IMG/VR virus record: IMGVR_UViG_3300030331_002818
Span: 1-52,469 of that record
Reading direction: 5' to 3' (one strand)
Length of the DNA: 52,469 nt
From: a virus
Lineage: Duplodnaviria; Caudoviricetes
The position numbers and the translations under genes were made by a program. This document shows positions 2,674-42,066 of this stretch, piece by piece. The notes beneath the pieces were generated by a model. It was not told the DNA's origin. It searched no databases and worked only from the letters and a program-made list of their open reading frames with translations. How positions within the stretch are numbered: the stretch's first letter is position 1; every line of letters begins with the position of its first letter.

Positions 2674-3240
2674 ATGCCGTGGAAACTAGGAGGTAATACA
2701 ATCAAGGAAGGACGTGGATGGGTACACAACAATATCCAACACCCAAAAACTTGGATGCGTTACAGTGATGACTTAAAAAAACAATATGGTTTAACATGGG
2801 AAGATCCACCAGCCTCAGCCGCTCCATATGATAATAGATTTTATTGGGGTAGACAGACTAATGGCACGTTAATTCCAAAAAGTTTGACCGATGTAAATGA
2901 AGTTGATGAAGATGGTAAGGCGTTATTAGATGCAAATGGTAAGCAGATAGTTACCCTTGGCCTCAAGTCTGTATGGATTGAAAAAACAAAACAAGAGGCA
3001 AACTCTTTACTTGCAAACACTGATTGGTATATTACTCGCAATGCTGAAAAATCTACAGCTATACCTAGCTCTATCACCACTTATAGAGATGCCGTTCGCA
3101 CTAAATGTGGAGAGATAGAGACAGCCTTGAATGGCGCAAAAGATCTAGCGGCATTTATAAAGTTGTTTGAGGATGAGCGTAATTCAGATGGTACTGTAAA
3201 GACGGTTGCAAAAATCGACGACTGGCCTGATGAGGTCTAA
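2674..3240 (+). CDS. Putative tail fibre assembly/chaperone protein
   Basis: Lies directly after the fibre with an AGGAG RBS. The LLANTDWYITR...YRDAVR and WPD end motifs resemble tail-assembly chaperones. Confidence 0.55.
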   Translation: MPWKLGGNTIKEGRGWVHNNIQHPKTWMRYSDDLKKQYGLTWEDPPASAAPYDNRFYWGRQTNGTLIPKSLTDVNEVDEDGKALLDANGKQIVTLGLKSVWIEKTKQEANSLLANTDWYITRNAEKSTAIPSSITTYRDAVRTKCGEIETALNGAKDLAAFIKLFEDERNSDGTVKTVAKIDDWPDEV

Positions 3241-3243
3241 ACT

Positions 3244-5130
3244 GTGCCTTTAACTAAATTACAATTTCGTCCTGGAATTAATAGAGATGTAACATCTTAC
3301 TCAAATGAAGGTGGTTGGGTAGATTGTGACCGTGTGCGGTTTCGGTTAGGTTATCCTGAAATAATAGGCGGTTGGGAAAAATATAGTGAAGAAAGGTACA
3401 TAGGCACAGCTAGAGGGTTATTTAATTGGGCTGCTTTAGATGGCAGTAATTTATTAGGTTTAGGCACGGAAGTCAAATACTATATAGAAGAAGGCCAACA
3501 ATTTTATGATGTAACACCTATTAGAAAAACTTCTACTAATAGTGTTACGTTTGCTGCGACAAATGGCAGTTCTACAATAACAGTTACAGATACTAATCAT
3601 GGAGCGGTAGTATCAGACCATGTTACAATAACAGATGCTGTTAGTCTGGGTGGTAATATTACAGCCGCCGTATTGAATCAAGAATATCAAATAACAAGTA
3701 TTCCTACTTCTAATACTTATACTTTTGAAGCTAAAGATACATCTGGTGCAACCGTAACAGCTAATGCTAGTGATAGTGGTAACGGTGGATCTAATGCAGA
3801 TGGAGAATATCAAATAAACTCTGGCCTTGCAAATGGCGTGGGTGGCACAGGTTGGGGTGCTGGAACATGGGGTAGAGGTACTTGGGGATCTGCTGCTTCT
3901 GTAGGTGTAACTACACAATTAAGATTATGGAGTCATGATAATTTTGGTGAAAATTTAATTATTAATCCACGTGATGGCGGTATATTTTTCTGGACTAAAG
4001 CTGATGGTTTTTCTACTAGAGCGCGTGAAATAGGCACAATAGGTGGTGCTAATGAAACACCTGTCATAGCAAAACAGATATTAGTGTCGGATGTTGATAG
4101 GCATGTAATTGCATTTGGGACAAATCCTGTAGGCAGTTCTACACAAGACCCTCTACTAATACGGTTTTCAGACCAAGAGAATGCGCTTGATTGGGAGCCA
4201 ACAGCTACTAATACTGCTGGTGATTTACGTATAGGTACAGGATCACAATTTGTAAAAGCTATAGAAACGAAACGTGAAATAGTTATATTTACAAATAGTT
4301 CTGTTCATTCAATGCAGTTTATAGGTGCGCCGTTTACTTTTGGAATACAGCCATTAGCTTCTAATATTACCATCATGGGTCCAAATGCAGCAGTTGCGGT
4401 AGAAGATGCAGTATTTTGGATGGGTAAACAAAACTTTTATCTGTATGATGGTAAAACACAACAGTTACCATGTAGTGTGACTGAGCATGTGTTTTTTGAT
4501 TTTGATTTTGATCAATTTGAAAAAGTATTTGCTGGTATTATATCAGAGTTTAGTGAAGTTATTTGGTTTTATCCTTCTAACACAAACTCATTAGCTAATG
4601 GTGGCACAGGTGAAAATGATAGATATGTGATTTATAATTACTCAGAAAATATTTGGTATTATGGCGATTTAGGTAGAACAGCGTTTATTGATAGAGGTAT
4701 AAGAGATTTTCCAATAGGGGCAGCAGATACATACCTATACAATCATGAATCTGGTTATACGGATGATGGTGCAGCATTAGTAGCAAGTATTGAATCTAGT
4801 CCGATAGATATGGGTGAGGGAGATCAATTTACTTTTATACGCAGGATTATACCTGATTTTACATTTACGGGTTCTACTAATACAGACCCTACTGTAAATG
4901 TGACATTACAATCTAATAATTTTCCTGGAGGTAATTATCTACAAAGTGAGATAGCACAAGTAGATAGAACAGCTACTTCTACAACAGTGCCTTTTGAACA
5001 GTATACAGATAAAGCTGATGTAAGATTAAGAGGTAGGGCATTTAGTATAAAAGTAGATTCATCATCTATAGGTACAAGATGGCGTTTAGGTAGCCCACGA
5101 GTTGATATGAGACAAGATGGGAGAAGGTAA
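3244..5130 (+). CDS. Tail/DNA stabilisation protein (P22 gp10-like or tail tubular protein B-like, beta-rich)
   Basis: 628 aa with a GTG start. Motifs: RPGINRDVT..SNEGGW.DCDRVRFR, LLIRFSDQE...W.PT.TNTAG.LRIG.GS and a C-terminal WRLG..R.D...DGRR. It lies upstream of the ejection proteins. Confidence 0.6.
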   Translation: MPLTKLQFRPGINRDVTSYSNEGGWVDCDRVRFRLGYPEIIGGWEKYSEERYIGTARGLFNWAALDGSNLLGLGTEVKYYIEEGQQFYDVTPIRKTSTNSVTFAATNGSSTITVTDTNHGAVVSDHVTITDAVSLGGNITAAVLNQEYQITSIPTSNTYTFEAKDTSGATVTANASDSGNGGSNADGEYQINSGLANGVGGTGWGAGTWGRGTWGSAASVGVTTQLRLWSHDNFGENLIINPRDGGIFFWTKADGFSTRAREIGTIGGANETPVIAKQILVSDVDRHVIAFGTNPVGSSTQDPLLIRFSDQENALDWEPTATNTAGDLRIGTGSQFVKAIETKREIVIFTNSSVHSMQFIGAPFTFGIQPLASNITIMGPNAAVAVEDAVFWMGKQNFYLYDGKTQQLPCSVTEHVFFDFDFDQFEKVFAGIISEFSEVIWFYPSNTNSLANGGTGENDRYVIYNYSENIWYYGDLGRTAFIDRGIRDFPIGAADTYLYNHESGYTDDGAALVASIESSPIDMGEGDQFTFIRRIIPDFTFTGSTNTDPTVNVTLQSNNFPGGNYLQSEIAQVDRTATSTTVPFEQYTDKADVRLRGRAFSIKVDSSSIGTRWRLGSPRVDMRQDGRR

Positions 5131-5508: not shown

Positions 5509-7005
5509 ATGCAAGGTATAGAATCTCTCGGCTATGAAGTTCAAGAACTACCAATGGTTCCGCAAGGCGGTATCCAAGGTTATGAACAAGCTGCCGATAT
5601 TTTAGCAGAGTTTGGTCGTAATGGCGATACATACATTGTTCACGCTGCTGAAGGCGAAACAATGGTTCCAATGGAAGTATTGGATAATAATCCACGTTTA
5701 AAGAAAATGTTATTTACCCAGATGCAAGAGATGGGTATAGATCCAGAGCGTTATATTGTTGGTAATGAACTTAATAGTATAAACCCTGTAACAGGACAAC
5801 CTGAGTTTTTCCTTAAAAAATTGTTCAGAGGAGTTAAAAAAGCTGCTAAAAAAGTAGCAAAAGTCGCTAAAAAAGTAGCACCAATAATCTTACCTGTAGC
5901 AGCTCCTTTCTTATTACCAGCTATGCCGATTGCTTTTGCTAGTGGTATCGGTAGTTTAGCTGGTGGCTTAATAGCTGGACAAGATTTTGGTACAGCACTT
6001 AAAGGTGCTGTGATTACAGGTGGTTTAGCTGGACTTGGTAATGTAGCTTTTGGTGGCAAGACAGGTTTTGGCAGTGGTAAATTCTTTGGTAGTATCGCTG
6101 ATCCTACAGCAGGATTAGGCACATTTAGTATGAAACAAGCCTTTACTCCAGTCAACCCATTTAGTGAGGCTGGTAAAGCACAACTTGCTGCATTTAGAGC
6201 GCAAGCTCAAGGTCAACCACAACAACAAGTATTAGAAAAAGCTACAGGTAGCGGTATAGATTCAACCACTGACGCGTTTGGAAGATCAACTGAAGTCTTA
6301 CCTGATGATCCTACACCTTTTGCAAAAGGTGGCGCAGAAACAAAGGTTACAGATTTAAAATTAGAGCCACCAATAGAGCCACCAAGCACTTATGATCAAG
6401 CTGTTGAGTTTTACCAACAAAATATTAGCCCAAGCGGTAGAGCAGCAAACCTTGATAACGCTAAAGTTTTAGCAGATGCTCAGGCAATTAAAGCACAAGA
6501 GATCGCTAATCAACAAGCATTAGGTATACCTGTTGATGAAGCTGAGATAGCAAAAGCAGCATTAGAAAAAGCCACCGCACAAAATACTCCTGGAGTAATA
6601 TCGCAATATGCGCCGATTACAGCACTTGGTACAGCAGGAGCAGTTGCCGCTGATTATGCTGCAGATGGTGCAATATTAGGTATATTTAAAGATGAAGATG
6701 ATGATGGGTTAGATGATGAAACTGGCTTAACTATGCAACAACTTAAAGACCAATATCCAGAAAAATTCTTTGACCCAGCTAAGTTTTATGGTGATAACCC
6801 AGCTTATCAAGGATTTGCAACAGTAGCTCAGGGTGGAGAAATTGTTGGTCCTGGAACACCAACCAGTGATTCTATACCAGCTTTATTAAGTGATGGTGAG
6901 TTTGTTATGAATGCTGCTGCTGTCCGTGGTGCAGGAGGTGGTAATAGAAAAGAGGGTGCAAAAAGAATGTATGCTATGATGCGTGAGTTTGAGGGGAGAG
7001 CGTAA
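5509..7005 (+). CDS. Putative internal virion / ejection protein
   Basis: GRNGDTYIVHA..GE, INPVTGQPEFF, a Gly/Ala-rich hydrophobic segment and C-terminal GPGTPTSDSIPALLSDGEFV. Its position is typical of podovirus DNA-transfer proteins. Confidence 0.6.
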   Translation: MQGIESLGYEVQELPMVPQGGIQGYEQAADILAEFGRNGDTYIVHAAEGETMVPMEVLDNNPRLKKMLFTQMQEMGIDPERYIVGNELNSINPVTGQPEFFLKKLFRGVKKAAKKVAKVAKKVAPIILPVAAPFLLPAMPIAFASGIGSLAGGLIAGQDFGTALKGAVITGGLAGLGNVAFGGKTGFGSGKFFGSIADPTAGLGTFSMKQAFTPVNPFSEAGKAQLAAFRAQAQGQPQQQVLEKATGSGIDSTTDAFGRSTEVLPDDPTPFAKGGAETKVTDLKLEPPIEPPSTYDQAVEFYQQNISPSGRAANLDNAKVLADAQAIKAQEIANQQALGIPVDEAEIAKAALEKATAQNTPGVISQYAPITALGTAGAVAADYAADGAILGIFKDEDDDGLDDETGLTMQQLKDQYPEKFFDPAKFYGDNPAYQGFATVAQGGEIVGPGTPTSDSIPALLSDGEFVMNAAAVRGAGGGNRKEGAKRMYAMMREFEGRA

Positions 7006-22261: not shown

Positions 22262-22861
22262 ATGTTTTATGCAATATGTGAAGCTACTCCAGGAAGCTCT
22301 GGATCTCCTTACACAGTATATAGGTTTGCTACGCTAGAATCTTTAAAAGAGTGTGAAGCGGTAAACGAGTATAGCATAATTTATAACGGTGAATCACCTA
22401 GACAATTAGTTGAGTTTTGCTCAATAGCAGAGCTACATGATGTAGCTTTTAATTTAGGTGGGGACACAACATTTGTTTCCCATCAACAAGCGGCTGACCA
22501 TGTGCATGAGGCAGTGGTTAAAAAAGCCAAAGTATGGAAACCTGAAGAGGAGCCAAGTATGTCTAACATACATGTAGATCAGTTTAATAATAAAGCACAG
22601 AAACATGAAGCAGAGGTAAAAGAAGCTAAGAAACCTCGTACTCGTTTTAGAAATGATGCTCGCATTATTGTGTTGAAAGATACACCCACTGTTCGTGAGG
22701 GTACTAATCGTTACCGTAATATGAAAGTAATTATGGAAAGTGCTACGGTTGGCGAAGCCCTAGCTAATCTTCGTGCATTAAACCCTGCTCCAGGATGTGG
22801 TGTTGATATTAGGATAGCGATAGAAGCTGGTGTTATAAAATTGGATTGGCAGGAGCAATAA
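22262..22861 (+). CDS. Hypothetical two-domain protein heading the DNA-modification operon
   Basis: Strong RBS; basic linker followed by a small C-terminal domain (REGTNRYR...ATVGEAL...DIRIAIEAGVIKL). Confidence 0.65.
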   Translation: MFYAICEATPGSSGSPYTVYRFATLESLKECEAVNEYSIIYNGESPRQLVEFCSIAELHDVAFNLGGDTTFVSHQQAADHVHEAVVKKAKVWKPEEEPSMSNIHVDQFNNKAQKHEAEVKEAKKPRTRFRNDARIIVLKDTPTVREGTNRYRNMKVIMESATVGEALANLRALNPAPGCGVDIRIAIEAGVIKLDWQEQ

Positions 22862-22863
22862 CC

Positions 22864-23760
22864 ATGTTGCCCGAAGCTGTAGAAAGTTACTTCGGTTGGA
22901 TTAATGAGCGGCACTCGATATACCAGCGTAGGTTATCGGGTGCGCCACCACCTTGGACTGATGACCCCATTTTGCAAGAATATAAATTTACAAACCCTTT
23001 TCGTGAGAATGATAGGGTAACTGTATGGATGCGGCAAAATTGGACAAAGCCAAACGATAATCGTTCACATAGTGAAATGATATTTAATTGTTGTCTGTTT
23101 CGTATGGTTGGCACAAGTGAGTTTGCCGAGGATCATGGGTGGGTGGAAGATTTTAACCCACAAAAAACCAAACACCTTATTGATTCAAGACTTTCTCTTG
23201 GTAAAAGAACATTTACTGGTGCATATATAATCACTAACCAAGGACTCAAAGCACCAAAGTCAGAGGTAGTAGTTGACCATTTCCTCACGCCCATATGGGA
23301 AAATAAAGAAACGCTGGCGAAGATTGCCCAACAAACGCAGTCGCTCCAAGCGTTACATGAAGCGATGGGTGCGTATAAAGGGTGGGGAGGAGGAGGTTTT
23401 ATGTCATACGAAGTGGTTACCGACCTCAACTACACACCTGTATTGGATAAGGCAAAAGACCGTTTTAGTTGGGCTAACGCGGGTCCAGGAGCTATACGAG
23501 GAATTAACCGTATCCTCGGAAGAGATTTAAAAAAGGGTATGACCCAGCCTATAGCTAACGAACACATGGTCAGGTTATTAAAACATGCACCTTATCATGT
23601 TTTAAAACATGTGCCTCTTGATCAGGTAGATATGCGTACGATTGAGCATAGCTTATGTGAGTGGGATAAATATGAGCGTGTAAGGTTAGGGCAAGGTAGA
23701 CCAAGAAGTATTTATCACCCTACTTTATTAACAGATACACCAAAAGGAGCCGTAGAATGA
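22864..23760 (+). CDS. aGPT-Pplase1 / 5-hmdU DNA kinase helical-domain family protein (HhH DNA-glycosylase-like fold)
   Basis: ERHSIY..R..G...PWTDDPILQEYKFTN..RENDRVT, HhH-like KGWGGGGFMSYEVVTDL, AGPGAIRGI and EHSLCEWDKYER. The ATG at 22864 follows AGGAG. Confidence 0.8.
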   Translation: MLPEAVESYFGWINERHSIYQRRLSGAPPPWTDDPILQEYKFTNPFRENDRVTVWMRQNWTKPNDNRSHSEMIFNCCLFRMVGTSEFAEDHGWVEDFNPQKTKHLIDSRLSLGKRTFTGAYIITNQGLKAPKSEVVVDHFLTPIWENKETLAKIAQQTQSLQALHEAMGAYKGWGGGGFMSYEVVTDLNYTPVLDKAKDRFSWANAGPGAIRGINRILGRDLKKGMTQPIANEHMVRLLKHAPYHVLKHVPLDQVDMRTIEHSLCEWDKYERVRLGQGRPRSIYHPTLLTDTPKGAVE

Positions 23761-25031
23761 AGTTTCTAATGACAATGTTTCAAATACAAGATTACGGTGG
23801 GATCATCAACCATGCCGAGTATCTTGCTAAAGGTTTAAAAGAGTTAGGCCATGAAGTTGATTTTACAATGCTTGTTCCTAAAAATAAGGTGGCGGGAAAC
23901 AGCTCTCCACCAAAAAACTTTGATCAATACCGTAAGGTCGGAACAGGATATTTACACCATCAAGCTAGGGGGTGGGTCGGTCTGCCAAAAGTGCCTTACC
24001 TTTCTAAATATCACAGGGATTTATTTAAACAGAAAGCCGCCAAATATGATGCTGTTTTATGGCATATTCCTGTACCCACTATGAGTAAAGAAAATAAAGG
24101 TATTACCGATTGGTTAGATTTGTACGGCCATGGCACTAAAAACATAGCCATCATACATGATGGTAATTTACCTGAGTTATACCCTCATTTAATACATGTA
24201 CATGAGATGTTTCATTCTGCCGTGTGTGTACATGAGTCAGCTATGGTTTCTGGAGACATGTTGCCCATACCACGCAAATTAATAGTAAATCCTTTTGATG
24301 TAAGTAAGGCTGATGGTTGGACTGACTTCGAAAGGCGAGAAGGGTTTGCAGCTATTCAAGTTTTTAAGGCTTGGAAGCGTGTAGATACTTTAATTCGTGC
24401 CATAAGATATATGGATAATAGTGAGTGTAAGCTCATAGGTGGAGAAGGTATTGAGTACCGATACATGACTAGTCCTGATAAATGCAAACCAAAATATTTT
24501 GATGAGACAGGTGAGCGCATATGGGATAGAGCCAAGCGTTATGGTATGCAGCACCTAGGAACTGTTCCAAATGATAAAGTGTTAGAAATATTAAAAACAG
24601 TCAAACTACAAATTGATCCAAGCTATAGTAAAAAATACTCTAGCTTCGGCGCACATTTTAATAGGACTACTGTAGAAGCAATAATCTGCGGCGCAGTTCC
24701 CGTAGCTACTGATTGGGGTATGTGGAACAGTGAAATATTTAAGGCTGGAGAAAATTATATAGAGATTCCCGCTGAGGGTAAAACATTTGTGATCGCTGAT
24801 ATTATCGATGATGCAGTGCATGATAAACAACAATGGATTCGTATAAAAGAAAACAATCTAAAATTGTTAGAGCTATTTGATATGCGTAATGTAGCTCAAA
24901 GCTATGTTGATTTAGTAAACAGTAATCAAGGATTACCTATTGGCACTCCCGATACAAAAGCCCTGCAAAAATGCCAAAAAAACTTAGAGTTCTTTGGTAT
25001 TGGCTCTACAGACCCCGTTCGAGTGGCTTAG
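23757..25031 (+). CDS. GT-B fold glycosyltransferase (GT4-like), putative DNA glycosyltransferase
   Basis: N-terminal YGGIINHAEYLAKGLKELGHEV; KAWKRVDTLIRA; FNRTTVEAIICGAVPV donor-binding motif; flanked by base-modification genes. Confidence 0.8.
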   Translation: MKFLMTMFQIQDYGGIINHAEYLAKGLKELGHEVDFTMLVPKNKVAGNSSPPKNFDQYRKVGTGYLHHQARGWVGLPKVPYLSKYHRDLFKQKAAKYDAVLWHIPVPTMSKENKGITDWLDLYGHGTKNIAIIHDGNLPELYPHLIHVHEMFHSAVCVHESAMVSGDMLPIPRKLIVNPFDVSKADGWTDFERREGFAAIQVFKAWKRVDTLIRAIRYMDNSECKLIGGEGIEYRYMTSPDKCKPKYFDETGERIWDRAKRYGMQHLGTVPNDKVLEILKTVKLQIDPSYSKKYSSFGAHFNRTTVEAIICGAVPVATDWGMWNSEIFKAGENYIEIPAEGKTFVIADIIDDAVHDKQQWIRIKENNLKLLELFDMRNVAQSYVDLVNSNQGLPIGTPDTKALQKCQKNLEFFGIGSTDPVRVA

Positions 25032-25089
25032 TGTTTTTAGGCCACCAACCTACCACCCATAACCTTAGATACGATCGAGGAGGCTTTAT

Positions 25090-26067
25090 ATGCGGTCAAT
25101 TTTAGCTAGGGGTGTAAGTGAAGCCCTCTATATAGGGCAACAAGCCTTATTTTCATCAGGTAAGCAGGTTGAAACACGTAATGGTCCCGTGTTAGAATTT
25201 GATACTCCTGTTATGACAACTTACACCCATAGTCGTGAGAGAGTTCTGTTTTACCCAGAACGTGATGCTAACCCATATTTTCATTTAATGGAAAGTTTAT
25301 GGATGTTGGCAGGGCGTAATGATGTGCCATGGATTTTAAGTTTTAATGGTCGCATGAATACATATAGTGATGATGGTAAAACTTTCCACGGTGCTTATGG
25401 ATACAGATGGAGGGAGTGGTTTGGTAAAGATCAATTAAAAACTGTTCTGTTTAGATTAGGCACTTACCGTAATGATCGTAGGGCTGTGTTAGGTATATGG
25501 GATCCTCACCAAGACTTAGTTGAAACCAACGATGGTAAAGATTACCCCTGTAATACCCAGATATATTTTTGGGAGCGTAGGGGTGAATTAAATATGACTG
25601 TAACTAATCGTAGTAATGATATGATCTGGGGTGCGTATGGTGCTAATGCTGTTCATATGTCTGTCTTGTTAGAGTATATGGCTGCGATGCTCGGATATGC
25701 TGTAGGCACGTATTATCAATTTAGTAATAACCTTCATGCGTATACAGATGTTTTAAAAAAGTTAGAAGGTATGCAAGCAGATTATGAACCATATCTTACA
25801 TTAGCCGAGGATGGATTAAGTTATAACCCACCATCTTTAGTTGATGATCCTGATACATTTGATCAAGAACTGCAAGAATGGTTTTTAGATGAAGCAAGAG
25901 TAACTTACAATAATGTTTATTTAGGTACGACTTGTGGAAATATGCGTAAATCGTGGAGGTTTTGGAAGAGTAAAAATTATCAAAATGCTTTTCATTGTGC
26001 CAATGCAATAGAAGATCGCGCATGGCGTAAAGCCTGTATAGAATGGCTGCAAAGGAGAATTAAGTGA
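25090..26067 (+). CDS. Thymidylate synthase homologue, probable dUMP hydroxymethyltransferase
   Basis: TRNG, ESLWMLAG, GAYG.RWR, RRAVL.IWDP, catalytic DYPCN, RSND, WGAYGAN (Asn, the uracil-specific type) and NLHAY. Confidence 0.82.
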   Translation: MRSILARGVSEALYIGQQALFSSGKQVETRNGPVLEFDTPVMTTYTHSRERVLFYPERDANPYFHLMESLWMLAGRNDVPWILSFNGRMNTYSDDGKTFHGAYGYRWREWFGKDQLKTVLFRLGTYRNDRRAVLGIWDPHQDLVETNDGKDYPCNTQIYFWERRGELNMTVTNRSNDMIWGAYGANAVHMSVLLEYMAAMLGYAVGTYYQFSNNLHAYTDVLKKLEGMQADYEPYLTLAEDGLSYNPPSLVDDPDTFDQELQEWFLDEARVTYNNVYLGTTCGNMRKSWRFWKSKNYQNAFHCANAIEDRAWRKACIEWLQRRIK

Positions 26068-35970: not shown

Positions 35971-36059
35971 TGGATGGCACGTTAATCTTTTTAATAGTCT
36001 GCGATGCAGTGCTTTTGATAGCAATCGGTTTCAAAGTAAAGGAGGCATTAAGTGAGTAA
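35970..36059 (+). CDS. 29-aa membrane peptide (not in the ORF track)
   Basis: TGATG coupling; MDGTLIFLIVCDAVLLIAIGFKVKEALSE*. Confidence 0.45.
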   Translation: MDGTLIFLIVCDAVLLIAIGFKVKEALSE

Positions 36060-36492
36060 ACCAGAGTCCACATTGTGGAAAAATCTGCGTGAGGGAACCA
36101 AAGATCTAGGCGTGTTTTGGACACGTCTAGAGTCTTGGTCTAGTCCTGGAGTACCTGACTTGCATGGCATATTGGATGGTCATGCTTTTTGGCTTGAGCT
36201 TAAAGTTCATAGGTTAAACTCGTTAAATAAAATTGCTCTTCGTCCTCACCAAATTGCTTGGCAGATAAGATATAGCGGATATTCTGGAAACGTCTGGAAC
36301 TTGGTTAGTCATCCTTCGTCCCGAACTATAAATATATTTCACGGTGCGAGAGCCATGGATATTGCAACAACGACGATAAAAGATGATCCCTTGATACCTG
36401 ACTGGAGTTCGGGATCGCCTTACGATTGGACGGGGGCTATCAATCATATTCTATCATCCTCTCGTCCCATCATAAAGGAGGAAGATCTCTAG
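36052..36492 (+). CDS. PD-(D/E)xK nuclease (VRR-NUC / Holliday junction resolvase-like)
   Basis: ESTLW, RLE....PGVPDL.G, FWLELKV and LRPHQIAW; AAGGAGG RBS before GTG. Confidence 0.8.
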   Translation: MSKPESTLWKNLREGTKDLGVFWTRLESWSSPGVPDLHGILDGHAFWLELKVHRLNSLNKIALRPHQIAWQIRYSGYSGNVWNLVSHPSSRTINIFHGARAMDIATTTIKDDPLIPDWSSGSPYDWTGAINHILSSSRPIIKEEDL

Positions 36493-36573
36493 TTTCGTCA
36501 TCAATCTTCCTCAGTCAAACTTAAATTATCAATCATCCTCAATCATTTTCCGTTGACGATGATTGATGATGAC
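36439..36573. repeat. Iteron cluster 1, consensus ATCAATCWTCCTC, in both orientations
   Basis: Exact copies at 36500 and 36528; variants at 36449, 36478 (-) and 36555 (-). Positions 36528-36567 form an imperfect inverted repeat. Confidence 0.75.
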
Positions 36574-36586
36574 AGGGATATTTTAA

Positions 36587-36671
36587 GATAATTATTGACT
36601 TGTCAATAAAAATCATACGTGCTACTCTTACATCATAAGCAATGGTGCTTATGGACATGTCGTAGAAAGGA
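36587..36671 (+). promoter_or_regulatory. Promoter with leader hairpin
   Basis: GATAATTATTGACTTGTC box; TTGTCA-17bp-TACTCT; hairpin CATAAGC-AATGGT-GCTTATG; TAGAAAGGA. Confidence 0.65.
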
Positions 36672-36677
36672 CATATC

Positions 36678-37094
36678 ATGACTGCTAAAACTGTTAAAAA
36701 ATCTACTGCTAAAACTGTCGTTAAATCAGCTGAGCTGGTGGTTACTGACCGCGAGCTAGACTATACTGAGATTTGGGCATTTGTCCAACAACACGCTGGT
36801 GGCAATGAGGCTAACGTCAAAATTGTGCCTCTTGACAATGTTGACTTGGCAAGCGCAACGCCTGTCCCGTTTGGCTATGGCGGCAAGACGGGAGGCGTCA
36901 GGCAACGCATCCAAGATTGGATGCTTAAAGGTGTTGACGGTGACCTGTCCCTTAAAGCGGTTCTCAATAAAGCTGCACCATTAGGACACTCTCGTAAAAA
37001 GCCTGTCTGCTTACATGCTTTGATGCACGGAGGATACAGCCCGTCCAGTAAATACTGGATGACACCATTCGTCAAACTTGTAGTCCAAGGCTAA
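36678..37094 (+). CDS. Hypothetical protein, paralogue A
   Basis: Has its own promoter, RBS and terminator. Colinear with 37498-37941 (IW.FVQQHAGGN, PVPFG..GK.GGVR, PLGHS.KKP.CL, GGYSPSS..W). Confidence 0.85.
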   Translation: MTAKTVKKSTAKTVVKSAELVVTDRELDYTEIWAFVQQHAGGNEANVKIVPLDNVDLASATPVPFGYGGKTGGVRQRIQDWMLKGVDGDLSLKAVLNKAAPLGHSRKKPVCLHALMHGGYSPSSKYWMTPFVKLVVQG

Positions 37095-37101
37095 TATAGA
37101 G

Positions 37102-37127
37102 GGGGACGTCGCAAGGCGTCCCCTTTT
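37102..37127 (+). terminator. Rho-independent terminator
   Basis: GGGGACGTC-GCAA-GGCGTCCCC-TTTT. Confidence 0.8.
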
Positions 37128-37144
37128 ACCGAGGACCCTTGCCT

Positions 37145-37297
37145 GAGGAAGAGGGATGATGATTCCCTTCCTAGACGAAGACTGATATGTATAGGCATTA
37201 GTCTATACATATCATATCATTATCAATCTTCCTCTAACAAGTTTGAAGATTATAGAGGATTTAATACTTCAGAAACAGAGTTATCAAAAAAAGTCTC
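37145..37297. repeat. Iteron cluster 2 (same 13-bp motif)
   Basis: Exact ATCAATCTTCCTC at 37222; reverse-strand variants at 37145 and 37174; GA/TC-dense up to 37297. Confidence 0.7.
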
Positions 37298-37388
37298 TTG
37301 TTGCAGTTTGCAAAAAAACAAACAGCAAAGGGTTAAAAATGTGGTTGTTAATTTTTGCACTAATAGTGTTGGGTTTTTATGCCCTAAT

Positions 37389-37493
37389 AAAAAAGTAAAA
37401 ATAAGTAAAAATAAGTATTGTGCGCAGCGTTAATATGTGCATAATAAAAATTGTAAGCAATAACGCTTACAGGCATTTAAACGCATAGGAGGT
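37389..37493 (+). promoter_or_regulatory. Strong sigma70-like promoter with phased A-tracts and a leader hairpin
   Basis: AAAAATAAGT repeats at 10-bp spacing; TTGTGC at 37418; TG-CATAAT at 37440; hairpin TGTAAGC-AATAAC-GCTTACA; AGGAGGT RBS. Confidence 0.65.
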
Positions 37494-37497
37494 AAAA

Positions 37498-37941
37498 ATG
37501 CCAAATACTAAAAAGGGTGCAGCTACCCAAAAAGCTACTACTACTACCGCCACTGCTAATGTTGCTACTTTGCAGCATACAGGTAATGAGCTAACGTATT
37601 TTGACATATGGCAGTTTGTACAGCAACACGCTGGCGGCAACTTACATAATGTGCAAGTTGTGCCGCTAGGCAATGTACAACTTGACCAGCCGCAGCCAGT
37701 GCCATTTGGCTTTAATGGCAAAGCTGGCGGGGTACGTGCCACTATACAAGGTTGGTTATTGCGCGGTGTAAATGGTAGCAATAGCCTTGCCGCAATACTG
37801 GCGGCAGCCAAGCCACTAGGCCACAGCAGCAAAAAGCCAATTTGCTTGTTGGCTTTGTTAAACGGCGGCTATAGCCCCAGCAGCAGCACATGGGGTACAG
37901 GCTACGTTAAGTTGGTAGTGCAGCCCCAACCTACCCAATAA
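37498..37941 (+). CDS. Hypothetical protein, paralogue B (TC/GA-avoiding recoded copy)
   Basis: AGGAGGT RBS; homologous to 36678-37094; only 1 Glu and 2 Asp; all Ser codons are AGC. Confidence 0.85.
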   Translation: MPNTKKGAATQKATTTTATANVATLQHTGNELTYFDIWQFVQQHAGGNLHNVQVVPLGNVQLDQPQPVPFGFNGKAGGVRATIQGWLLRGVNGSNSLAAILAAAKPLGHSSKKPICLLALLNGGYSPSSSTWGTGYVKLVVQPQPTQ

Positions 37942-37977
37942 CACCAGCGCAGGGGGGTTACGGGTCCCCCAGCCACC

Positions 37978-38007
37978 AACACCGCCCAGCTTGGGCGGTG
38001 TTTTTTT
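37978..38007 (+). terminator. Rho-independent terminator
   Basis: AACACCGCCCA-GCT-TGGGCGGTGTT-TTTTT. Confidence 0.85.
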
Positions 38008-38224
38008 GTACCCCCGCGAGACCGTCCCCTTGGCTATAGCTTGGTCTGTAGCCATGTTTTGGACATATCGTGTGGTAACAAAAAAGTTTCAGGATATTGA
38101 CTTTACTCGATCAAAAGCCGAGACCGCCACCCCCCTCATACTGTAGAATCGTCATAGGTTCATTGCCCTAGAAAAATTTTCGATATATTTATAATATATC
38201 CGCATTATTGAGGAACCATGGATA

Positions 38225-39688
38225 ATGGATGTTCAATTAGTACCTGAAGAACAATTAAAAAAGTATGCCCATTTATTAGAGCGAGCTGCGGAGATAAACC
38301 AAGCAGAGGCCAGCCAACAAGATTTTATGGAGTATACTAAAACGGTTTGGCCTGAATTTATAAATGGACGCCACCATAAAATTATGGCTGAGAAGTTTAA
38401 CCGTATAGCTAATGGTGATTTAAAACGGTTAATAGTAAATATGCCACCGCGCCATACAAAAAGTGAGTTTGGCAGTTATTTATTACCTAGTTGGTTGATG
38501 GGTAAAAACCCACGATTAAAGATAATGCAGACAACACATACGGCTGAGTTAGCTTTTAGATTTGGCCGAAAGGTGCGTAATTTAATGAACTCTGCAGAAT
38601 ATACTAGGGTTTTCCCTGGAGTAGAATTACGTGCGGATAGCCAAGCAGCGGGACGTTGGGAGACAAGTAAAGGTGGAGAATATTTTGCGGCTGGTGTTGG
38701 TGGTGCGGTTACAGGCCGTGGTGCAGATTTATTGATTATTGATGACCCGCACAGTGAACAAGATGCACTTAGCCCTACAGCATTAGAACATGCTTATGAG
38801 TGGTATACATCTGGTCCGCGCCAGCGTTTACAACCAGGAGGTGCGATAGTTATTATTATGACTCGCTGGGCAGATAATGATTTAACAGGTAAATTATTAA
38901 AACAGCAGGGCAGAGATATATTAGCAGATAAATGGGAAGTGGTTGAGTTTCCGGCATTAATGCCAGAGAGTGAAGAACCCCTTTGGCCTGAGTTTTGGAA
39001 AAAAGAAGATTTATTAAGTGTTAAAGGTAGTTTGTCAGTTGGTAAGTGGGAAGCGCAATGGCAGCAAAACCCTACTGGCGATATGGCAGCTATACTTAAA
39101 CGTGAGTGGTGGAATATGTGGGAGAAAGATGATATACCACCATTAGAGTATGTAATGCAGTCTTATGATACTGCGTATAGTAAAAAGGAAACATCGGATT
39201 TTAGTGCTATAACTACATGGGGTGTTTTTTATCCTAAAGAGGGAGGACCACCAAACATTATTCTATGTGATGCTAAACGTGGCAGATGGGACTTCCCTGA
39301 TTTGCGGCGGCGAGCACTTGAGGAGTATAAATACTGGGAACCAGAATGTGTACTTATAGAGGCAAAAGCCAGTGGTATGCCGCTAACACAAGAGTTGAGA
39401 AATATGGGTATACCAGTGATGAATTATACACCTAGTAGGGGTAATGATAAATTCACAAGAGTAAACTCTATTGCGCCGTTGTTTGAAAGTGGTTTAGTAT
39501 GGTCGCCAGATACGCGCTGGGCAGAAGAAGTTATTGAAGAATGTGCAGCGTTTCCCGCAGGGGAGCATGATGATTATGTTGATACAGTTACCCAAGCTCT
39601 TCGTAGATTTAGGGAAGGCGGCTTTATACAACATCCCGAAGATTATGAGGAAGAAGAATCTGTCCCTGTACAAAGGATATATTACTAA
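38225..39688 (+). CDS. terL: Terminase large subunit
   Basis: NMPPRHTKS Walker A variant, GRGADLLIIDDP Walker B, IMTRW, RNase H-like SYDTA, IEAKASG and HDDYVD. Confidence 0.95.
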   Translation: MDVQLVPEEQLKKYAHLLERAAEINQAEASQQDFMEYTKTVWPEFINGRHHKIMAEKFNRIANGDLKRLIVNMPPRHTKSEFGSYLLPSWLMGKNPRLKIMQTTHTAELAFRFGRKVRNLMNSAEYTRVFPGVELRADSQAAGRWETSKGGEYFAAGVGGAVTGRGADLLIIDDPHSEQDALSPTALEHAYEWYTSGPRQRLQPGGAIVIIMTRWADNDLTGKLLKQQGRDILADKWEVVEFPALMPESEEPLWPEFWKKEDLLSVKGSLSVGKWEAQWQQNPTGDMAAILKREWWNMWEKDDIPPLEYVMQSYDTAYSKKETSDFSAITTWGVFYPKEGGPPNIILCDAKRGRWDFPDLRRRALEEYKYWEPECVLIEAKASGMPLTQELRNMGIPVMNYTPSRGNDKFTRVNSIAPLFESGLVWSPDTRWAEEVIEECAAFPAGEHDDYVDTVTQALRRFREGGFIQHPEDYEEEESVPVQRIYY

Positions 39689-42066
39689 TGGCAATTAACC
39701 CCCGTCCAAGCAATATTGACCGCAGTTTATTACAAGCACCTAATGATACATTTAGTGCATTAGAAGATAATTTAGTTGAACAAGAATTAGAAATAATTAC
39801 AGAAGAAGAAACAGAAGATGGCGGTGCAGAGGTTATTTTTGGCGAAGATGACCAGCCATTAGGGGAAGAGCCAGCTAACTTTTACGATAATTTAGCAGAA
39901 TTTTTAAGTGATGATACATTAGGTAAAATAGCTACTTATGTATCTGAGAGTGTTGATGATGATAAAACTAGCCGCGATGAGTGGGTAGAAACTTATACAA
40001 AAGGTTTAGAACTGCTCGGTTTAAAGTATGAAACTCGCACAGAACCTTTTGATGGTGCTACAGGTGTAATACACCCGATACTAAATGAAGCTGTAACGCA
40101 GTTTCAAGCTGGTGCATATAAAGAGATGTTACCTAGCAGTGGTCCAGTAAAAAGTAATATTATTGGTGAAGCTACTCCAGAAGTAGAAGCACAGGCAAAA
40201 CGTGTGCAAGATTACATGAATTATCAAATTATGTATGAAATGGAAGAGTATGAGCCAGAATATGACCAGATGTTATATTACCTTGGACTTTCTGGTAGTG
40301 CTTTTAAAAAGGTTTATCGTGATGATGTGCTTGGCAGACCAGTAAGTAAGTTTGTACCAGCCGAAGATGTAGTCGCACCGTATACTGCAACTGATTTAGC
40401 ATCAGCAGAACGGATAACCCATATCATAAAAATGTCAAAAAATGAGTTACGTAAGTTACAAGTGACTGGTTTTTATCGTGATATGGATATACCAAAAGGT
40501 GAAAATACAGAATCAGATGATGTAAAAGAGGCTTATAACGAAATTGAAGGCAGGGAACCTGCTGGAGATAGTGAAGAAGTCATTTTATATGAGTGCCATT
40601 GTTATTTAGATCTGGAAGAATACCCAGATAAAGACCAAAATGATGAAAAAACAGGTATAAAACTACCTTATATTGCTACAATTAGTGCAGATAATGATGA
40701 AGTATTATCTGTAAGGCGAAATTATGGTCAAAATGACCCTATGAAAAAGAAAATACCGCATTTTGTGCAATATAAATTTACTCCAGGACTCGGTTTTTAC
40801 GGTTTTGGCTTAATTCATCTGCTTGGTAATTTATCGCGCACAGCTACAGCAAATTTACGCCAATTAATTGATTCTGGCACACTGAGTAATATGCCAGCAG
40901 GGTTTAAAGCTCGCGGTTTACGCATTGCAGATGAACAAACACCATTACATCCAGGAGAATTTAGGGATATTGATATCCCTGGAGGTGATATACGTACGAG
41001 TTTGATGTCTTTACCGTATAAAGAACCTTCTGGCACACTCTTTCAGTTGATGGGTTTTGTTATTGAATCAGCTCAACGGTTTATTGGCACAACTGATATT
41101 GGTGTAGGTGATGGCAGACAAGAGATGCCAGTTGGTACTACAATAGCTTTACTAGAACGTGGAGCTAAAATTATCAGTGCTGTACATAAACGGTTACATA
41201 CGAGTTTAAAACAAGAACTTAAAATGTTGGCACGGCTTTTTGCTGAAGACCCAACACCTTATCCATACGATGTTAAAGCAGATGCACAAATAAAAATATC
41301 TGATTTTGATGCTAGGATAGATATTATCCCTGTTAGTGATCCTAATATTTTTAGTATGTCACAAAGGGTAGTATTAGCTCAAGAACAATTAAAATTAGCG
41401 CAAGCTGCACCAGAGATGCACAATTTACGTGAGGCTTACCGCAGAGTTTATGAAGCATTAGGTGTAGATAATATTGAGCAAGTATTAAAACCTGAGCCAC
41501 AACCACAGCCGATGGATCCAGCAACAGAGAATCAGTTATCTAGTCAAGCGGCTGGTGGACAAGCTAAAATGCAAGCATTCCCAGACCAAGATCATGATGC
41601 TCATATTTCTGTTCATTTAGCGTATATGCAAAGTAGAGTAGCGCAAATGCAGCCGCCTGTATTACTTACTTTAGAAAAACATATTTATGAGCATATTGGT
41701 ATGAAAGCGATGGTGCAGTTCCAGCAGATGATGCAGCAGGATCCAAATATGCAACAATTACCACCTCAAGCACAGGCAGCTCAAGTAGCTACAATACAGG
41801 CACAATTAATGGCAGAGTTCCAACAGAAGCAACCGCCAGCACCGCCAAGTGACCCACTTGTAGAAATTAAGAAACAAGAGCTTGCGTTACGTGAAAAAGA
41901 AGTAAATATGGATCAACAGTTAGACCAACAAAAATTACAGATTGATTCACAAGCTAAACAAGAGAATGCGAATATCGCACGTGAGCGTATAGCTTCTACT
42001 GAAGATATAGCTAATATGAGAGCGCAGATTGCTTTACAAAGACAACAGCAAAATAGAGGTGGGTAA
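39688..42066 (+). CDS. Portal protein (P22-like)
   Basis: 792 aa directly after terL; RVQDYMNYQI, GSAFKKVY, PGLGFYGFGL and a Gln-rich coiled C-terminus. Confidence 0.88.
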   Translation: MAINPRPSNIDRSLLQAPNDTFSALEDNLVEQELEIITEEETEDGGAEVIFGEDDQPLGEEPANFYDNLAEFLSDDTLGKIATYVSESVDDDKTSRDEWVETYTKGLELLGLKYETRTEPFDGATGVIHPILNEAVTQFQAGAYKEMLPSSGPVKSNIIGEATPEVEAQAKRVQDYMNYQIMYEMEEYEPEYDQMLYYLGLSGSAFKKVYRDDVLGRPVSKFVPAEDVVAPYTATDLASAERITHIIKMSKNELRKLQVTGFYRDMDIPKGENTESDDVKEAYNEIEGREPAGDSEEVILYECHCYLDLEEYPDKDQNDEKTGIKLPYIATISADNDEVLSVRRNYGQNDPMKKKIPHFVQYKFTPGLGFYGFGLIHLLGNLSRTATANLRQLIDSGTLSNMPAGFKARGLRIADEQTPLHPGEFRDIDIPGGDIRTSLMSLPYKEPSGTLFQLMGFVIESAQRFIGTTDIGVGDGRQEMPVGTTIALLERGAKIISAVHKRLHTSLKQELKMLARLFAEDPTPYPYDVKADAQIKISDFDARIDIIPVSDPNIFSMSQRVVLAQEQLKLAQAAPEMHNLREAYRRVYEALGVDNIEQVLKPEPQPQPMDPATENQLSSQAAGGQAKMQAFPDQDHDAHISVHLAYMQSRVAQMQPPVLLTLEKHIYEHIGMKAMVQFQQMMQQDPNMQQLPPQAQAAQVATIQAQLMAEFQQKQPPAPPSDPLVEIKKQELALREKEVNMDQQLDQQKLQIDSQAKQENANIARERIASTEDIANMRAQIALQRQQQNRGG

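Follow-up and report, generated by a model that had tools for sequence, protein, structure and literature searches.

What kind of selection empties a single gene of a phage genome, along with the DNA around it, of the dinucleotides GA and TC? The question is raised by an island within the 52,469-nucleotide stretch of viral DNA analyzed here, referred to below as the window. The initial annotation had described zero TC and only four GA at positions 37298-37964, and the counts bear this out: over these 667 bp there is no TC, where the dinucleotide rates of the genome predict 24.7, and there are 4 GA instead of 43.7. As also stated there, the four GAs lie in the AGGAGG ribosome-binding site (37489), one Glu codon (37588) and two Asp codons (37603 and 37684). 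The longest TC-free gap in the genome is 669 bp (37296->37965), with a runner-up of 358 bp, and the top two GA-free gaps, of 334 and 211 bp, are likewise found inside the island. A sliding-window check, proposed with the annotation, singled out the same place: 300-bp windows contain on average 30.8 TC+GA (sd 6.1) genome-wide, two island windows contain 1 and 2, and the lowest value elsewhere in the 52-kb genome is 16. Counted on both strands, the GA/TC gap amounts to 28.9 mean spacings versus 7.6-11.8 in the other nine dinucleotide classes, at a genome-wide symmetric odds ratio for GA/TC of 0.85. The purged island is real. An assembly chimera, allowed for at the outset, is rejected, as contigs cross both edges: in run X1, possibly the source sample, a single 3243-bp contig covers 36400-38600 with 1 mismatch, and in run X3, which comes from another study, the contigs at 37124-37464 and 37515-38600 bridge both edges without error.

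The island coincides with the transcription unit of gene B and also takes in an ORF for a 19-codon membrane peptide (Table 1). Its coding part shows how thorough the purge is. The codon choices noted earlier hold throughout B, with Ser encoded by AGC in 8/8 cases, Phe by TTT in 4/4 and Ile by ATA or ATT, and the gene lacks any GGA, CGA, AGA, GTC or CTC. Shuffling the codon order of B gave means of 10.5 TC and 12.4 GA, and the observed 0 and 3 were reached in 0/5000 shuffles; back-translation with the codon usage of the genome gave 16.0 TC and 11.0 GA. Codon bias or amino-acid composition alone is rejected on this evidence. The 200-bp non-coding and leader part contains a single TC+GA versus 22.1 in mononucleotide shuffles (0/5000 as low). 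Since leader, terminator and the junctions between codons all lack GA and TC, the target of selection is the nucleotide sequence, not the protein or its codon usage. DNA-level selection that includes non-coding DNA and costs acidic residues, as the initial annotation had proposed, is a point on which shuffles, ortholog pairs and codon junctions agree.

Table 1. Features of the gene B cassette, its surroundings and the hypermodification genes (positions in the window).
Feature	Position	Strand	Remarks
Thymidine-hypermodification cluster	22262..26067	+	putative kinase ORF, HMUDK_hel protein, GT1 glycosyltransferase, thymidylate-synthase homolog
Gene A	36678..37094	+	138 aa; paralog of B; canonical ribosome-binding site of the clade
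GC-rich terminator-like hairpin	37102..37123	+	after gene A
A-B spacer	37124..37297	none	rich in GA/TC, 34 in 200 bp; left edge of the desert at its end
TC-free island	37298..37964	none	from dinucleotide counts
19-codon hydrophobic peptide ORF	37339..37398	+	ribosome-binding site without GA
Predicted promoter-like elements of B	37418..37445	+	TTGTGC, 16-nt spacer, CATAAT; A-rich tract 5'; from sequence reading only
7-bp stem-loop	37452..37471	+	predicted 5' end of the B transcript
Ribosome-binding site AGGAGG	37487..37492	+	contains one of the four island GAs
Gene B	37498..37941	+	147 aa; TC 0, GA 3; paralog of A
Two hairpins 3' of B	37952..38008	+	the first includes the TC at 37965

Several of these elements bear on where the purge begins and ends. 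The stem-loop near the predicted start of the transcript is supported by covariation, with 82% of cells paired compared with 26-45% when the pairing is slid, 11 double-change cells and 0/500 shuffles as high. At the other end, the second hairpin (37978-38002) is followed by a T-run and would act as an intrinsic terminator; the GA-free stretch extends to 38017, about 10 nt beyond this T-run. A search with Rfam found no family within 36000-38400 at E<=1. A promoter consensus scan was uninformative (37 sites versus 30 expected), and the promoter of B is not among its sites. The A-B spacer contains a perfect 11-bp palindrome (arms 37184-37194 and 37203-37213). The peptide ORF is kept upstream of B in relatives, within the desert in the window and in loci L035, L064 and L069, and outside it in L001, L002 and L004.

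Comparison with relatives reveals how the purge has persisted. Among 49 distinct B genes from related marine phage contigs, 22 are nearly free of both words, 7 have none, GA alone is missing from 3 and the depletion is relaxed in 17, while all 39 of 39 A genes are of normal composition. In 28 ortholog pairs of B, 8-38% of the bases differ, yet GA+TC stays at only 2-5; random substitution would lead to means of 12.5-41.3, with a minimum never below 5. Since orthologs as diverged as these keep so few, selection is ongoing. Acquisition by horizontal transfer from a donor with unusual composition is rejected, the purged state being actively maintained. The seven fully purged genes have 0 GA and 0 TC in the gene itself; in three of them (L064, L069 and L070) the 70 nt on either side are also clean, and the other four carry 1-3 flanking GA/TC. 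The extent of the purge is 600-740 bp, even and inclusive of every codon junction.

The two words do not always go together. In three independent lineages (L016, L058 and L078) GA is 0 with TC at background (16-23), and codon-junction GA is still missing in 5/8 of the relaxed B genes tested as well as in the TC-depleted L019 and L083 (P 0.002-0.009). The other 3/8 relaxed genes show no such depletion (P 0.057-0.099), and neither do the A genes (P 0.41-0.88). The conserved core is the avoidance of sense-strand GA; TC avoidance can be uncoupled from it. GA depletion is not in every case the last to be given up, as L019, L083 and L094 keep TC low with GA partly returned. Relaxation of the depletion has occurred repeatedly on the B tree.

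The canonical ribosome-binding site of the clade contains 2-3 GA; upstream of B it was remade without GA in at least 4 different ways, and in the most depleted relatives AGGAGG is swapped for GA-less purine runs. GA is retained within the untranscribed part of the promoter in several relatives, and several lineages tolerate it in the -35 and spacer and have zero from the 5' hairpin on. Downstream of the T-run, found in 22/28 rows, the first GA follows after 11-62 nt, mostly within 25 nt. Taken together, the edges of the desert fit a transcript as predicted from these signals.

What the cassette encodes is a small basic protein. Protein B has 147 aa, a pI of 9.9 and D+E = 3; its paralog A, 59% identical (E 9e-57), has a pI of 9.6 and D+E of 11, and its gene has 19 TC and 22 GA, a normal composition. 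Acidic residues of A give way in B not only to N but also to G, Q, T and L. Both proteins are predicted to carry a disordered K/T/A-rich tail, joined in B to a modelled alpha/beta domain (AF2, pLDDT 83.5). Neither Pfam nor PHROG has a family for A or B, a PDB sequence search with B gave no relative (best E 0.13, which is meaningless), and Foldseek with the B model found nothing in PDB and BFVD at E<=0.001. VIA-align returned a best Z of 5.4 and many winged-helix rows at Z 3-4, which are below the meaningful range of the tool itself; no hydrolase or antitoxin fold was seen for B in structure comparison. An Atlas search led only to viral clusters without a name, with DUF3489 at 0.77 as a lead at most. 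Distant A/B relatives have long K/A/P-rich tails, and in one of them the A/B-like domain is joined to an HNH_2 nuclease, an arrangement familiar from modification-dependent restriction enzymes. These distant relatives look like DNA-binding proteins. B identity among relatives is 58-88%, compared with 78-93% for A and 84-96% for TerL in 18/19 loci with a full-length TerL (L016 has a partial TerL match at 66%). B is fast-evolving and behaves like an accessory gene in an arms race. A diversity-generating retroelement is rejected: PHROGs revealed no reverse transcriptase in 71 ORFs, and the proteins A and B are only 59% identical. No DNA or protein match to the island or to B was found among 50,697 phage records, and no A/B homologs among 185,579 species genomes.

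The same genome appears to hold the gene set of a 5-hmdU thymidine-hypermodifying phage, with a thymidylate-synthase homolog and a putative 5-hmdU-acting enzyme. The ORF at 25090-26067 matches Pfam Thymidylat_synt (E 1.6e-19) and phrog_5131 (E 7e-103) and is a putative dUMP hydroxymethylase homolog. The one at 22846-23760 matches HMUDK_hel (E 1.1e-53) and is 33-38% identical to YuA/M6-like phage proteins, one of them annotated as aGPT-PPlase. A putative kinase at 22262-22861 has no Pfam match and is assigned by position only, following the gp13/gp14 order of YuA; such an ORF is present in the records of 12/19 relatives and in 8/8 of those at least 90% complete.

The purge is observed, as are its boundaries, how it persists and the ranking of the two strands; from these we infer a selecting agent, the host and a role for B. 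The reading we prefer, tentatively and at somewhat less than even confidence, is that the island is a motif-proof mRNA/DNA cassette that evades a dinucleotide-specific effector of the host. Promoter, 5' stem-loop, ribosome-binding site, B and terminator, with the small peptide ORF in this lineage, would form a self-contained expression cassette from which GA, and in most lineages TC too, has been purged. During infection, the B transcript and its DNA would then give a dinucleotide-specific activity against nucleic acids nothing to act on, and the likeliest source of such an activity is an abortive-infection effector of the host: a message without GA would remain translatable, and DNA lacking TC on either strand could not be hit. 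Sense GA would be under double selection, as a word in the RNA and as TC on the template strand, which on this reading is the reason why it forms the conserved core. B would be a protein needed even under attack, probably a nucleic-acid-binding counter-defence factor.

Two known enzymes lend this reading support. The sequence-specific nucleic-acid ADP-ribosyltransferases listed for phage defence in table 1 of PMC12945103 are CmdT, which targets GA in mRNA, and DarT2, which targets TNTC/TCTN in ssDNA, and the avoided words GA and TC are the cores of their two motifs. According to PMC11618068, in single-stranded mRNA CmdT attaches ADP-ribose to the A of GA, whereby translation is blocked, and its authors draw attention to the GA within Shine-Dalgarno sequences. 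Avoidance of host defences had been the second choice of the initial annotation, with DarT among its examples; comparative data now favor it. The best fit is CmdT acting on GA in mRNA, which had not been named there, combined with DarT. We favor host-effector avoidance because the island is the unit of an accessory gene, sense GA is its core and TC is separable.

There are also points against the host-effector reading. Avoidance of TC needs a second agent or an action at the DNA level, and DarT2 requires more than a bare TC dinucleotide. The target word is near-absent over leader, ribosome-binding site, ORF and 3' end; the copy in the window is nearly free of it, not free, with 4 GAs left in its message, including the one in the ribosome-binding site. 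The desert of this lineage also takes in about 120 bp upstream of the B promoter. B itself is without a hydrolase or antitoxin fold, and its distant relatives resemble DNA-binding proteins.

Moreover, every phage in which the A/B family was seen has the hypermodification cluster as well, and this points to a link with DNA modification; HTVC027P has neither, nor any dinucleotide desert. The initial annotation had placed self-modification by the phage in the lead. In the form weighed here, enzymes of the phage modify T in TC, and the cassette, with no TC on either strand, stays unmodified and readable by host RNA polymerase or a DNA-binding protein; freedom of the template strand, that is, of sense GA, would matter most. 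We consider this unlikely, though it is the strongest of the rivals. The genome encodes the cluster, HTVC023P-type clades have been reported with such clusters (PMC9599517), a TG/TC context is suggested by restriction data on M6, ViI and phiW-14 (PMC6449724), one agent would account for the loss of the words from either strand and from non-coding DNA, and the HNH_2 fusion of a distant relative would suit it. Yet the presence of the island does not follow that of the modification genes: these genes are kept in relatives whether B is fully depleted, GA-only depleted or undepleted, and in G006-G008 the cluster is conserved, B is undepleted and there is no dinucleotide desert of any kind. No ORF cluster distinguishes the 4 depleted from these 3 non-depleted genomes. 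TG/CA, the other half of the published context, is undepleted in the island, GA is tolerated within B promoters, and the cultured M6-like hypermodifying YuA (1 genome) has no dinucleotide desert. All other genes carry normal template-strand TC, and because these include replication genes read from incoming DNA, modified T would be no strong block. A terminase cut site or a place in the first-injected DNA, both parts of the earlier proposals, found no support in the analysis.

Other sources of selection fare worse. The basic proteins A and B, with tails of the kind that distant members share, an HNH_2 fusion in one relative and weak winged-helix-like matches (Z 3-5), might be histone-like and coat GA/TC steps, hindering transcription, with the gene for their bulk supply kept free of sites. 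We regard this as improbable: lineages depleted on one strand fit poorly with recognition of a duplex, A is of normal composition, the fold matches are below the level at which the tool is meaningful, and a two-base site would coat the entire genome. A cis-acting element (pac site, replication origin or recombination site) that overlaps B by chance is more improbable still. The cassette lies immediately upstream of the large terminase gene TerL, with repeats and palindromes on its flanks, and small-terminase genes or their surroundings are a common location of pac sites; however, the Terminase_2 small subunit is encoded 4 kb upstream, an even purge of every codon junction goes far beyond the need of a binding site, one-strand forms exist, and the purge follows the promoter and terminator of B where lineages differ in spacing. 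Scarcely credible is a mutational footprint, with TC and GA lost to earlier hypermutation by a cytosine deaminase specific for TC. Known DNA deaminases do act in TC context and both strands are affected, but this history expects TT/AA to rise and G+C to fall, and it is rejected as the island has neither: TT is 51 versus 53.9 expected, the dinucleotide GC is doubled (68 versus 34.8) and G+C across B is 0.42-0.63 versus 0.40 in the genome. That acidic residues were exchanged for G, Q, T and L too, not for N alone, and that the state persists through up to 38% divergence also speak against it. Classical restriction-site avoidance, a genome-wide shortage of a usually palindromic word of 4-8 bp, does not describe a dinucleotide avoided within one cassette; over the whole genome the symmetric odds ratio for GA/TC is only 0.85. 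GATC/GANTC methylation or restriction, CRISPR PAM avoidance, Rho YC-dimer avoidance, internal Shine-Dalgarno avoidance, UV photoproduct avoidance and primase sites were dropped, since they predict a longer word or other dinucleotides.

Known systems share parts of this pattern. CmdTAC resembles it in its two-letter GA word, mRNA target and block of translation, and leader, ribosome-binding site and ORF of B have shed GA; it differs in being known from E. coli against T-even phages (PMC11618068), and CmdT leaves the avoidance of TC unexplained. The text available on that system (PMC11618068) describes no GA-less escape gene. DarT2 has a motif core of T beside C, and the absence of TC on both strands removes all of its sites; it differs by acting on DNA genome-wide and not on one gene (PMC12945103). 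As its motif is four bases long, total removal of TC is more than this one enzyme requires. For M6, ViI and phiW-14-type phages, whose hypermodification genes have homologs in this genome, the available portions of PMC8989533, PMC5889632 and PMC6449724 describe no unmodified safe zone; their TG/TC context was deduced from restriction resistance, not mapped (PMC6449724). YuA is without a desert in the scan made here.

The logic of the B cassette is also that of ACA-less mRNAs surviving MazF, where a transcript without the recognition word works while others are inactivated. There the word has three bases, the genes are engineered or bacterial, and there is no DNA-strand symmetry; no natural phage cassette is known to us. 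Avoidance of restriction sites or PAMs in phages is likewise selected by host defence and concerns words of 4-8 bp, genome-wide and partially; in the B cassette the word has two bases, and its removal is complete and limited to a single transcription unit. A full-text literature search found no published description of such a GA/TC-purged gene.

A two-base word removed from one gene through deep divergence indicates very strong selection, readable from the sequence, and its cost has been acidic residues and a normal ribosome-binding site. If the host-effector reading is right, it would add a new evasion strategy and a new family of anti-defence proteins, and dinucleotide-specific RNA/DNA toxins would shape the conflict of marine phages with their hosts. 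A bolder version is possible if doubtful: a 'toxin-proof antidote cassette' in abundant ocean phages, that is, a GA/TC-free unit from promoter to terminator, invisible to dinucleotide-specific ADP-ribosyltransferases or to undiscovered RNases or modifiers with the same words, from which a new nucleic-acid-binding counter-defence family would be made once the host has silenced the rest of phage expression. Its full, GA-only and relaxed forms might then record the effectors of different host populations. Should hypermodification by the phage be the agent after all, the island would be the first unmodified zone encoded in sequence, and the context of the modification could be read from it. Strand-specific word-free genes may serve as a computational probe for the specificities of unknown nucleic-acid-targeting defence effectors. 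The phages with purged B genes are related to HTVC023P-type pelagiphages, a group that ranks with the most abundant viruses of the sea.

At 52,469 bp, the window is a complete phage genome and, judged by its sequence, podovirus-like. Its large terminase shares 58-63% identity with those of the Pelagibacter phages HTVC027P and HTVC023P, and its portal is of the SU10 type. The initial annotation had singled out 37298-37964 as a TC-free and GA-poor island, and the counts bear this out: TC occurs 0 times against 24.7 expected, and GA 4 times against 43.7. Its statements on codon choice in the island gene also hold on recount. The sliding-window scan it had proposed (300-bp windows) gives 1-2 TC+GA in the island, where the genome averages 30.8 (sd 6.1) and the next-lowest window has 16. 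The island is the longest TC gap (669 bp), nearly twice the next longest in the genome; counting both strands, the GA/TC gap extends over 28.9 mean spacings, versus no more than 11.8 for any of the other nine dinucleotide classes. Independent assemblies span both edges, so the island is not an assembly chimera, as had been considered.

The arrangement of its elements marks the island as a probable compact expression unit around gene B (see table). The 5' stem-loop is supported by covariation in 14 relatives, in which 82% of cells are paired versus 26-45% with the partner slid, and its pairing score was equalled in 0 of 500 shuffles. Gene B is a paralog of the adjacent gene A (59% identity, E 9e-57), whose composition is ordinary (TC 19, GA 22); A has 11 acidic residues versus 3 in B. 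A hydrophobic peptide ORF of 17-20 residues immediately upstream of B is kept in many lineages, variable in sequence and preserved in hydrophobic character. In the related locus L017, the spacer consists of a TCAATC-like repeat run (about 5790-5890) that extends right up to the B promoter.

Features of the island, its surroundings and other genome regions (window coordinates)
Feature	Position	Remark
ORFs of 859 and 1053 aa	7952-13707	downstream of ejection-protein-like gene; no Pfam or PHROG family; kept in all seven compared genomes
Thymidine-hypermodification cluster	22262-26067	
Small nuclease-like ORF	36052-36492	just upstream of A; phrog_2165 / phrog_93; PD-(D/E)xK-like by eye; kept in all seven genomes, also in HTVC027P
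Gene A	36678-37094	directly upstream of B
Spacer	37124-37297	just upstream of island; unusually TC/GA-rich
11-bp perfect palindrome	37184-37194 / 37203-37213	in spacer; compensating changes in related locus L001
Hydrophobic peptide ORF, 19 codons	37339-37398	first element of unit
A-rich tract and promoter-like hexamers	37418-37445	
7-bp stem-loop	37452-37471	predicted transcript 5' end
Ribosome-binding site AGGAGG		between stem-loop and B
Gene B, 147 aa	37498-37941	
Two hairpins 3' of B	37978-38002 plus T-run (second hairpin)	second is predicted intrinsic terminator
Non-coding, B terminator to TerL	38010-38224	conserved across relatives; contains first post-island GA/TC
Hairpin	38031-38054	within preceding region
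TerL and portal	38225-42066	

The avoidance of GA and TC in B is nucleotide-level selection, and it is ongoing. Shuffling the codon order of B (n=5000) yields on average 10.5 TC and 12.4 GA, and 0 of 5000 shuffles reach the observed 0 and 3; avoidance thus extends to codon junctions, beyond the choice of codons or residues. Likewise, the leader and upstream 200 bp contain 1 TC+GA versus 22.1 in shuffles. Eight TC-free B orthologs differ pairwise at 8-38% of positions and yet retain only 2-5 TC+GA each, while an equal number of simulated random substitutions leads to means of 12.5-41.3 (minimum 5), so that a single past event cannot explain the depletion. A deaminase footprint was ruled out: TT shows no excess, GC dinucleotides are twice as frequent as expected, G+C lies above the genome mean, and acidic residues of A are replaced in B not just by N but also by G, Q, T and L.

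The canonical ribosome-binding site of the clade, seen before A genes, carries two or three GAs, and before B there is one at most; in the lineages with the strongest depletion it has been remade as purine runs lacking GA, in at least four distinct versions. Several lineages keep GA in the untranscribed -35/spacer and have none from the 5' hairpin onward. At the other end, a T-run was located in 22 of 28 rows, and the first downstream GA follows 11-62 nt beyond it, mostly within 25 nt. These edges imply that the purge follows the transcript in most relatives. The small upstream ORF lies inside the purge in the window, L035, L064 and L069, and contains both GA and TC in L001, L002 and L004.

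The order A-B-TerL was found in all 20 first-scan IMG/VR loci reaching far enough upstream; a 21st begins inside B. In these loci B is 58-88% and A 78-93% identical to the window copy, and TerL 84-96% in 18 of 19 loci with a full-length TerL; that of L016 is a partial match at 66%. A profile scan added 79 loci, giving after deduplication 39 A and 49 B genes. All 39 A genes have normal composition (TC 18-41, GA 15-33). Among the B genes, 22 have TC ≤1 and GA ≤5, and seven of these lack GA, TC, Asp and Glu altogether; four combine TC 4-9 with GA ≤5, three TC 4-5 with GA 10-11, three zero GA with background TC (16-23), and 17 are relaxed (TC ≥16, GA 9-17). In the protein tree A forms a single clade (100/100) and relaxed states are scattered within B, indicating repeated loss of depletion. 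Five of eight relaxed B genes tested still miss GA at codon junctions (P 0.002-0.009) with normal TC, an effect not seen in the other three (P 0.057-0.099) or in A genes. GA and TC avoidance can therefore be separated, and it is the former, on the sense strand, that is the more universal. L019, L083 and L094 show the reverse order, TC staying low after partial GA return. In L020, a relaxed-type locus, tblastn matches B in two overlapping pieces (3156-3519), possibly a frameshift or broken copy.

B is basic (pI 9.9), with a disordered Lys/Thr/Ala tail and a confidently modeled alpha/beta domain (pLDDT 83.5); searches for structural relatives gave nothing convincing. Among 1.84 billion representatives, a profile search detected 96 clusters; their members are almost always standalone proteins (110-220 aa), and distant ones carry long Lys/Ala/Pro tails. 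One of these distant proteins, P0190 (420 aa), has an A/B-like domain at residues 66-192 (profile E 2.2e-9) and, fused to it, an HNH_2 endonuclease domain at residues 313-366; this architecture resembles that of modification-dependent restriction enzymes and suggests that the A/B domain reads DNA. In P0121 (339 aa; a single sequence from two contigs, Logan assembly only), an Ala/Pro/Glu/Lys linker connects a ribosomal protein L15 domain (PF00828, E 2.9e-19) to a C-terminal domain that matches A at 68% identity. It may be a misassembly or else a real fusion hinting at a ribosome link. The tails and the HNH_2 and L15 fusions suggest that the family is a putative nucleic-acid-binding module.

What drives the purge? 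Its completeness and zero tolerance imply that one site is enough to harm, and the agent would inactivate its molecule by a single hit. Two published anti-phage toxins, both of which attach ADP-ribose, act on words matching those purged from the B cassette: CmdT at the A of GA in single-stranded mRNA, halting translation (PMC11618068), and DarT2 at T in TNTC/TCTN in ssDNA (PMC12945103, table 1). A GA-free message and TC-free DNA strands would offer no substrate to enzymes of either kind, and both would exert selection on sense-strand GA. By this analogy, the B cassette may evade a dinucleotide-specific host effector, a possibility we favor tentatively. It would explain why there is a strand hierarchy, why the ribosome-binding site was rebuilt, why the purge has the limits of a transcript and is restricted to a single fast-evolving accessory gene, and why depletion relaxes in particular lineages although the phage enzymes are conserved. 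However, the DarT2 motif in that table comprises four bases, whereas B loses all TC; the 4 GA in the window's message and the low TC of L019, L083 and L094 are also left unexplained.

The initial annotation had instead proposed, as its leading idea, that the phage's own thymidine hypermodification leaves the island unmodified, which we consider rather unlikely. The genome does encode a hypermodification cluster, such clusters are reported for some HTVC023P-type clades (PMC9599517), and restriction data for M6, ViI and phiW-14 suggest T modification in TG or TC context (PMC6449724); the passages searched in two hypermodification pathway papers give no mapped context. The cluster occurs in the same clade as the A/B family, but inside this clade the island does not track the cluster, which weakens the idea. 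The expected co-occurrence failed to appear: the cluster is common to all seven compared genomes, four with depleted B (G000, G001, G002, G010; largest dinucleotide gap 29-56 mean spacings) and three without (G006, G007, G008; no desert of any dinucleotide, maximum 12.7), and every ORF cluster found in all four also occurs in at least one of the three. A kinase-like ORF was detected in 12 of the 19 records of relatives; all 8 records with at least 90% completeness have it, the three non-depleted genomes among them. Moreover, TG/CA is not depleted in the island, template-strand TC is ordinary in all other genes, and the cultured phage YuA, with homologous enzymes, has no desert. HTVC027P lacks the cluster, A/B and a desert alike. 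Self-site avoidance by a DNA-coating protein is improbable and a cis element still more so; the remaining probability falls to agents of undescribed type, such as RNases preferring GA or UC.

Avoiding motifs is already a known strategy. Full-text literature searches turned up no phage gene or cassette reported to lack a dinucleotide, and no precedent is known for the complete loss of a two-base word that is limited to a single transcription unit and shared across a clade.

A milder signal extends beyond B. Outside B, the dinucleotide most under-represented at the codon junctions of G000-G002 is TC (0.68-0.74), and GA is also scarce (0.79-0.90); G006-G008 and G010 give 0.82-0.87 and 0.84-0.93, and HTVC027P, the sole outgroup, 0.98 and 1.01. 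Relative to this one outgroup, there is a hint of genome-wide junction depletion. The largest gap of any other dinucleotide in the seven genomes is a 962-bp stretch without CG in the G010 contig (45203-46165; 16 mean spacings). After B, the genome's strongest codon-junction depletion is that of sense-strand TC in TerL and portal (z -5.2 and -6.5; 1.5 and 2.5 TC per 100 nt), where GA is normal.
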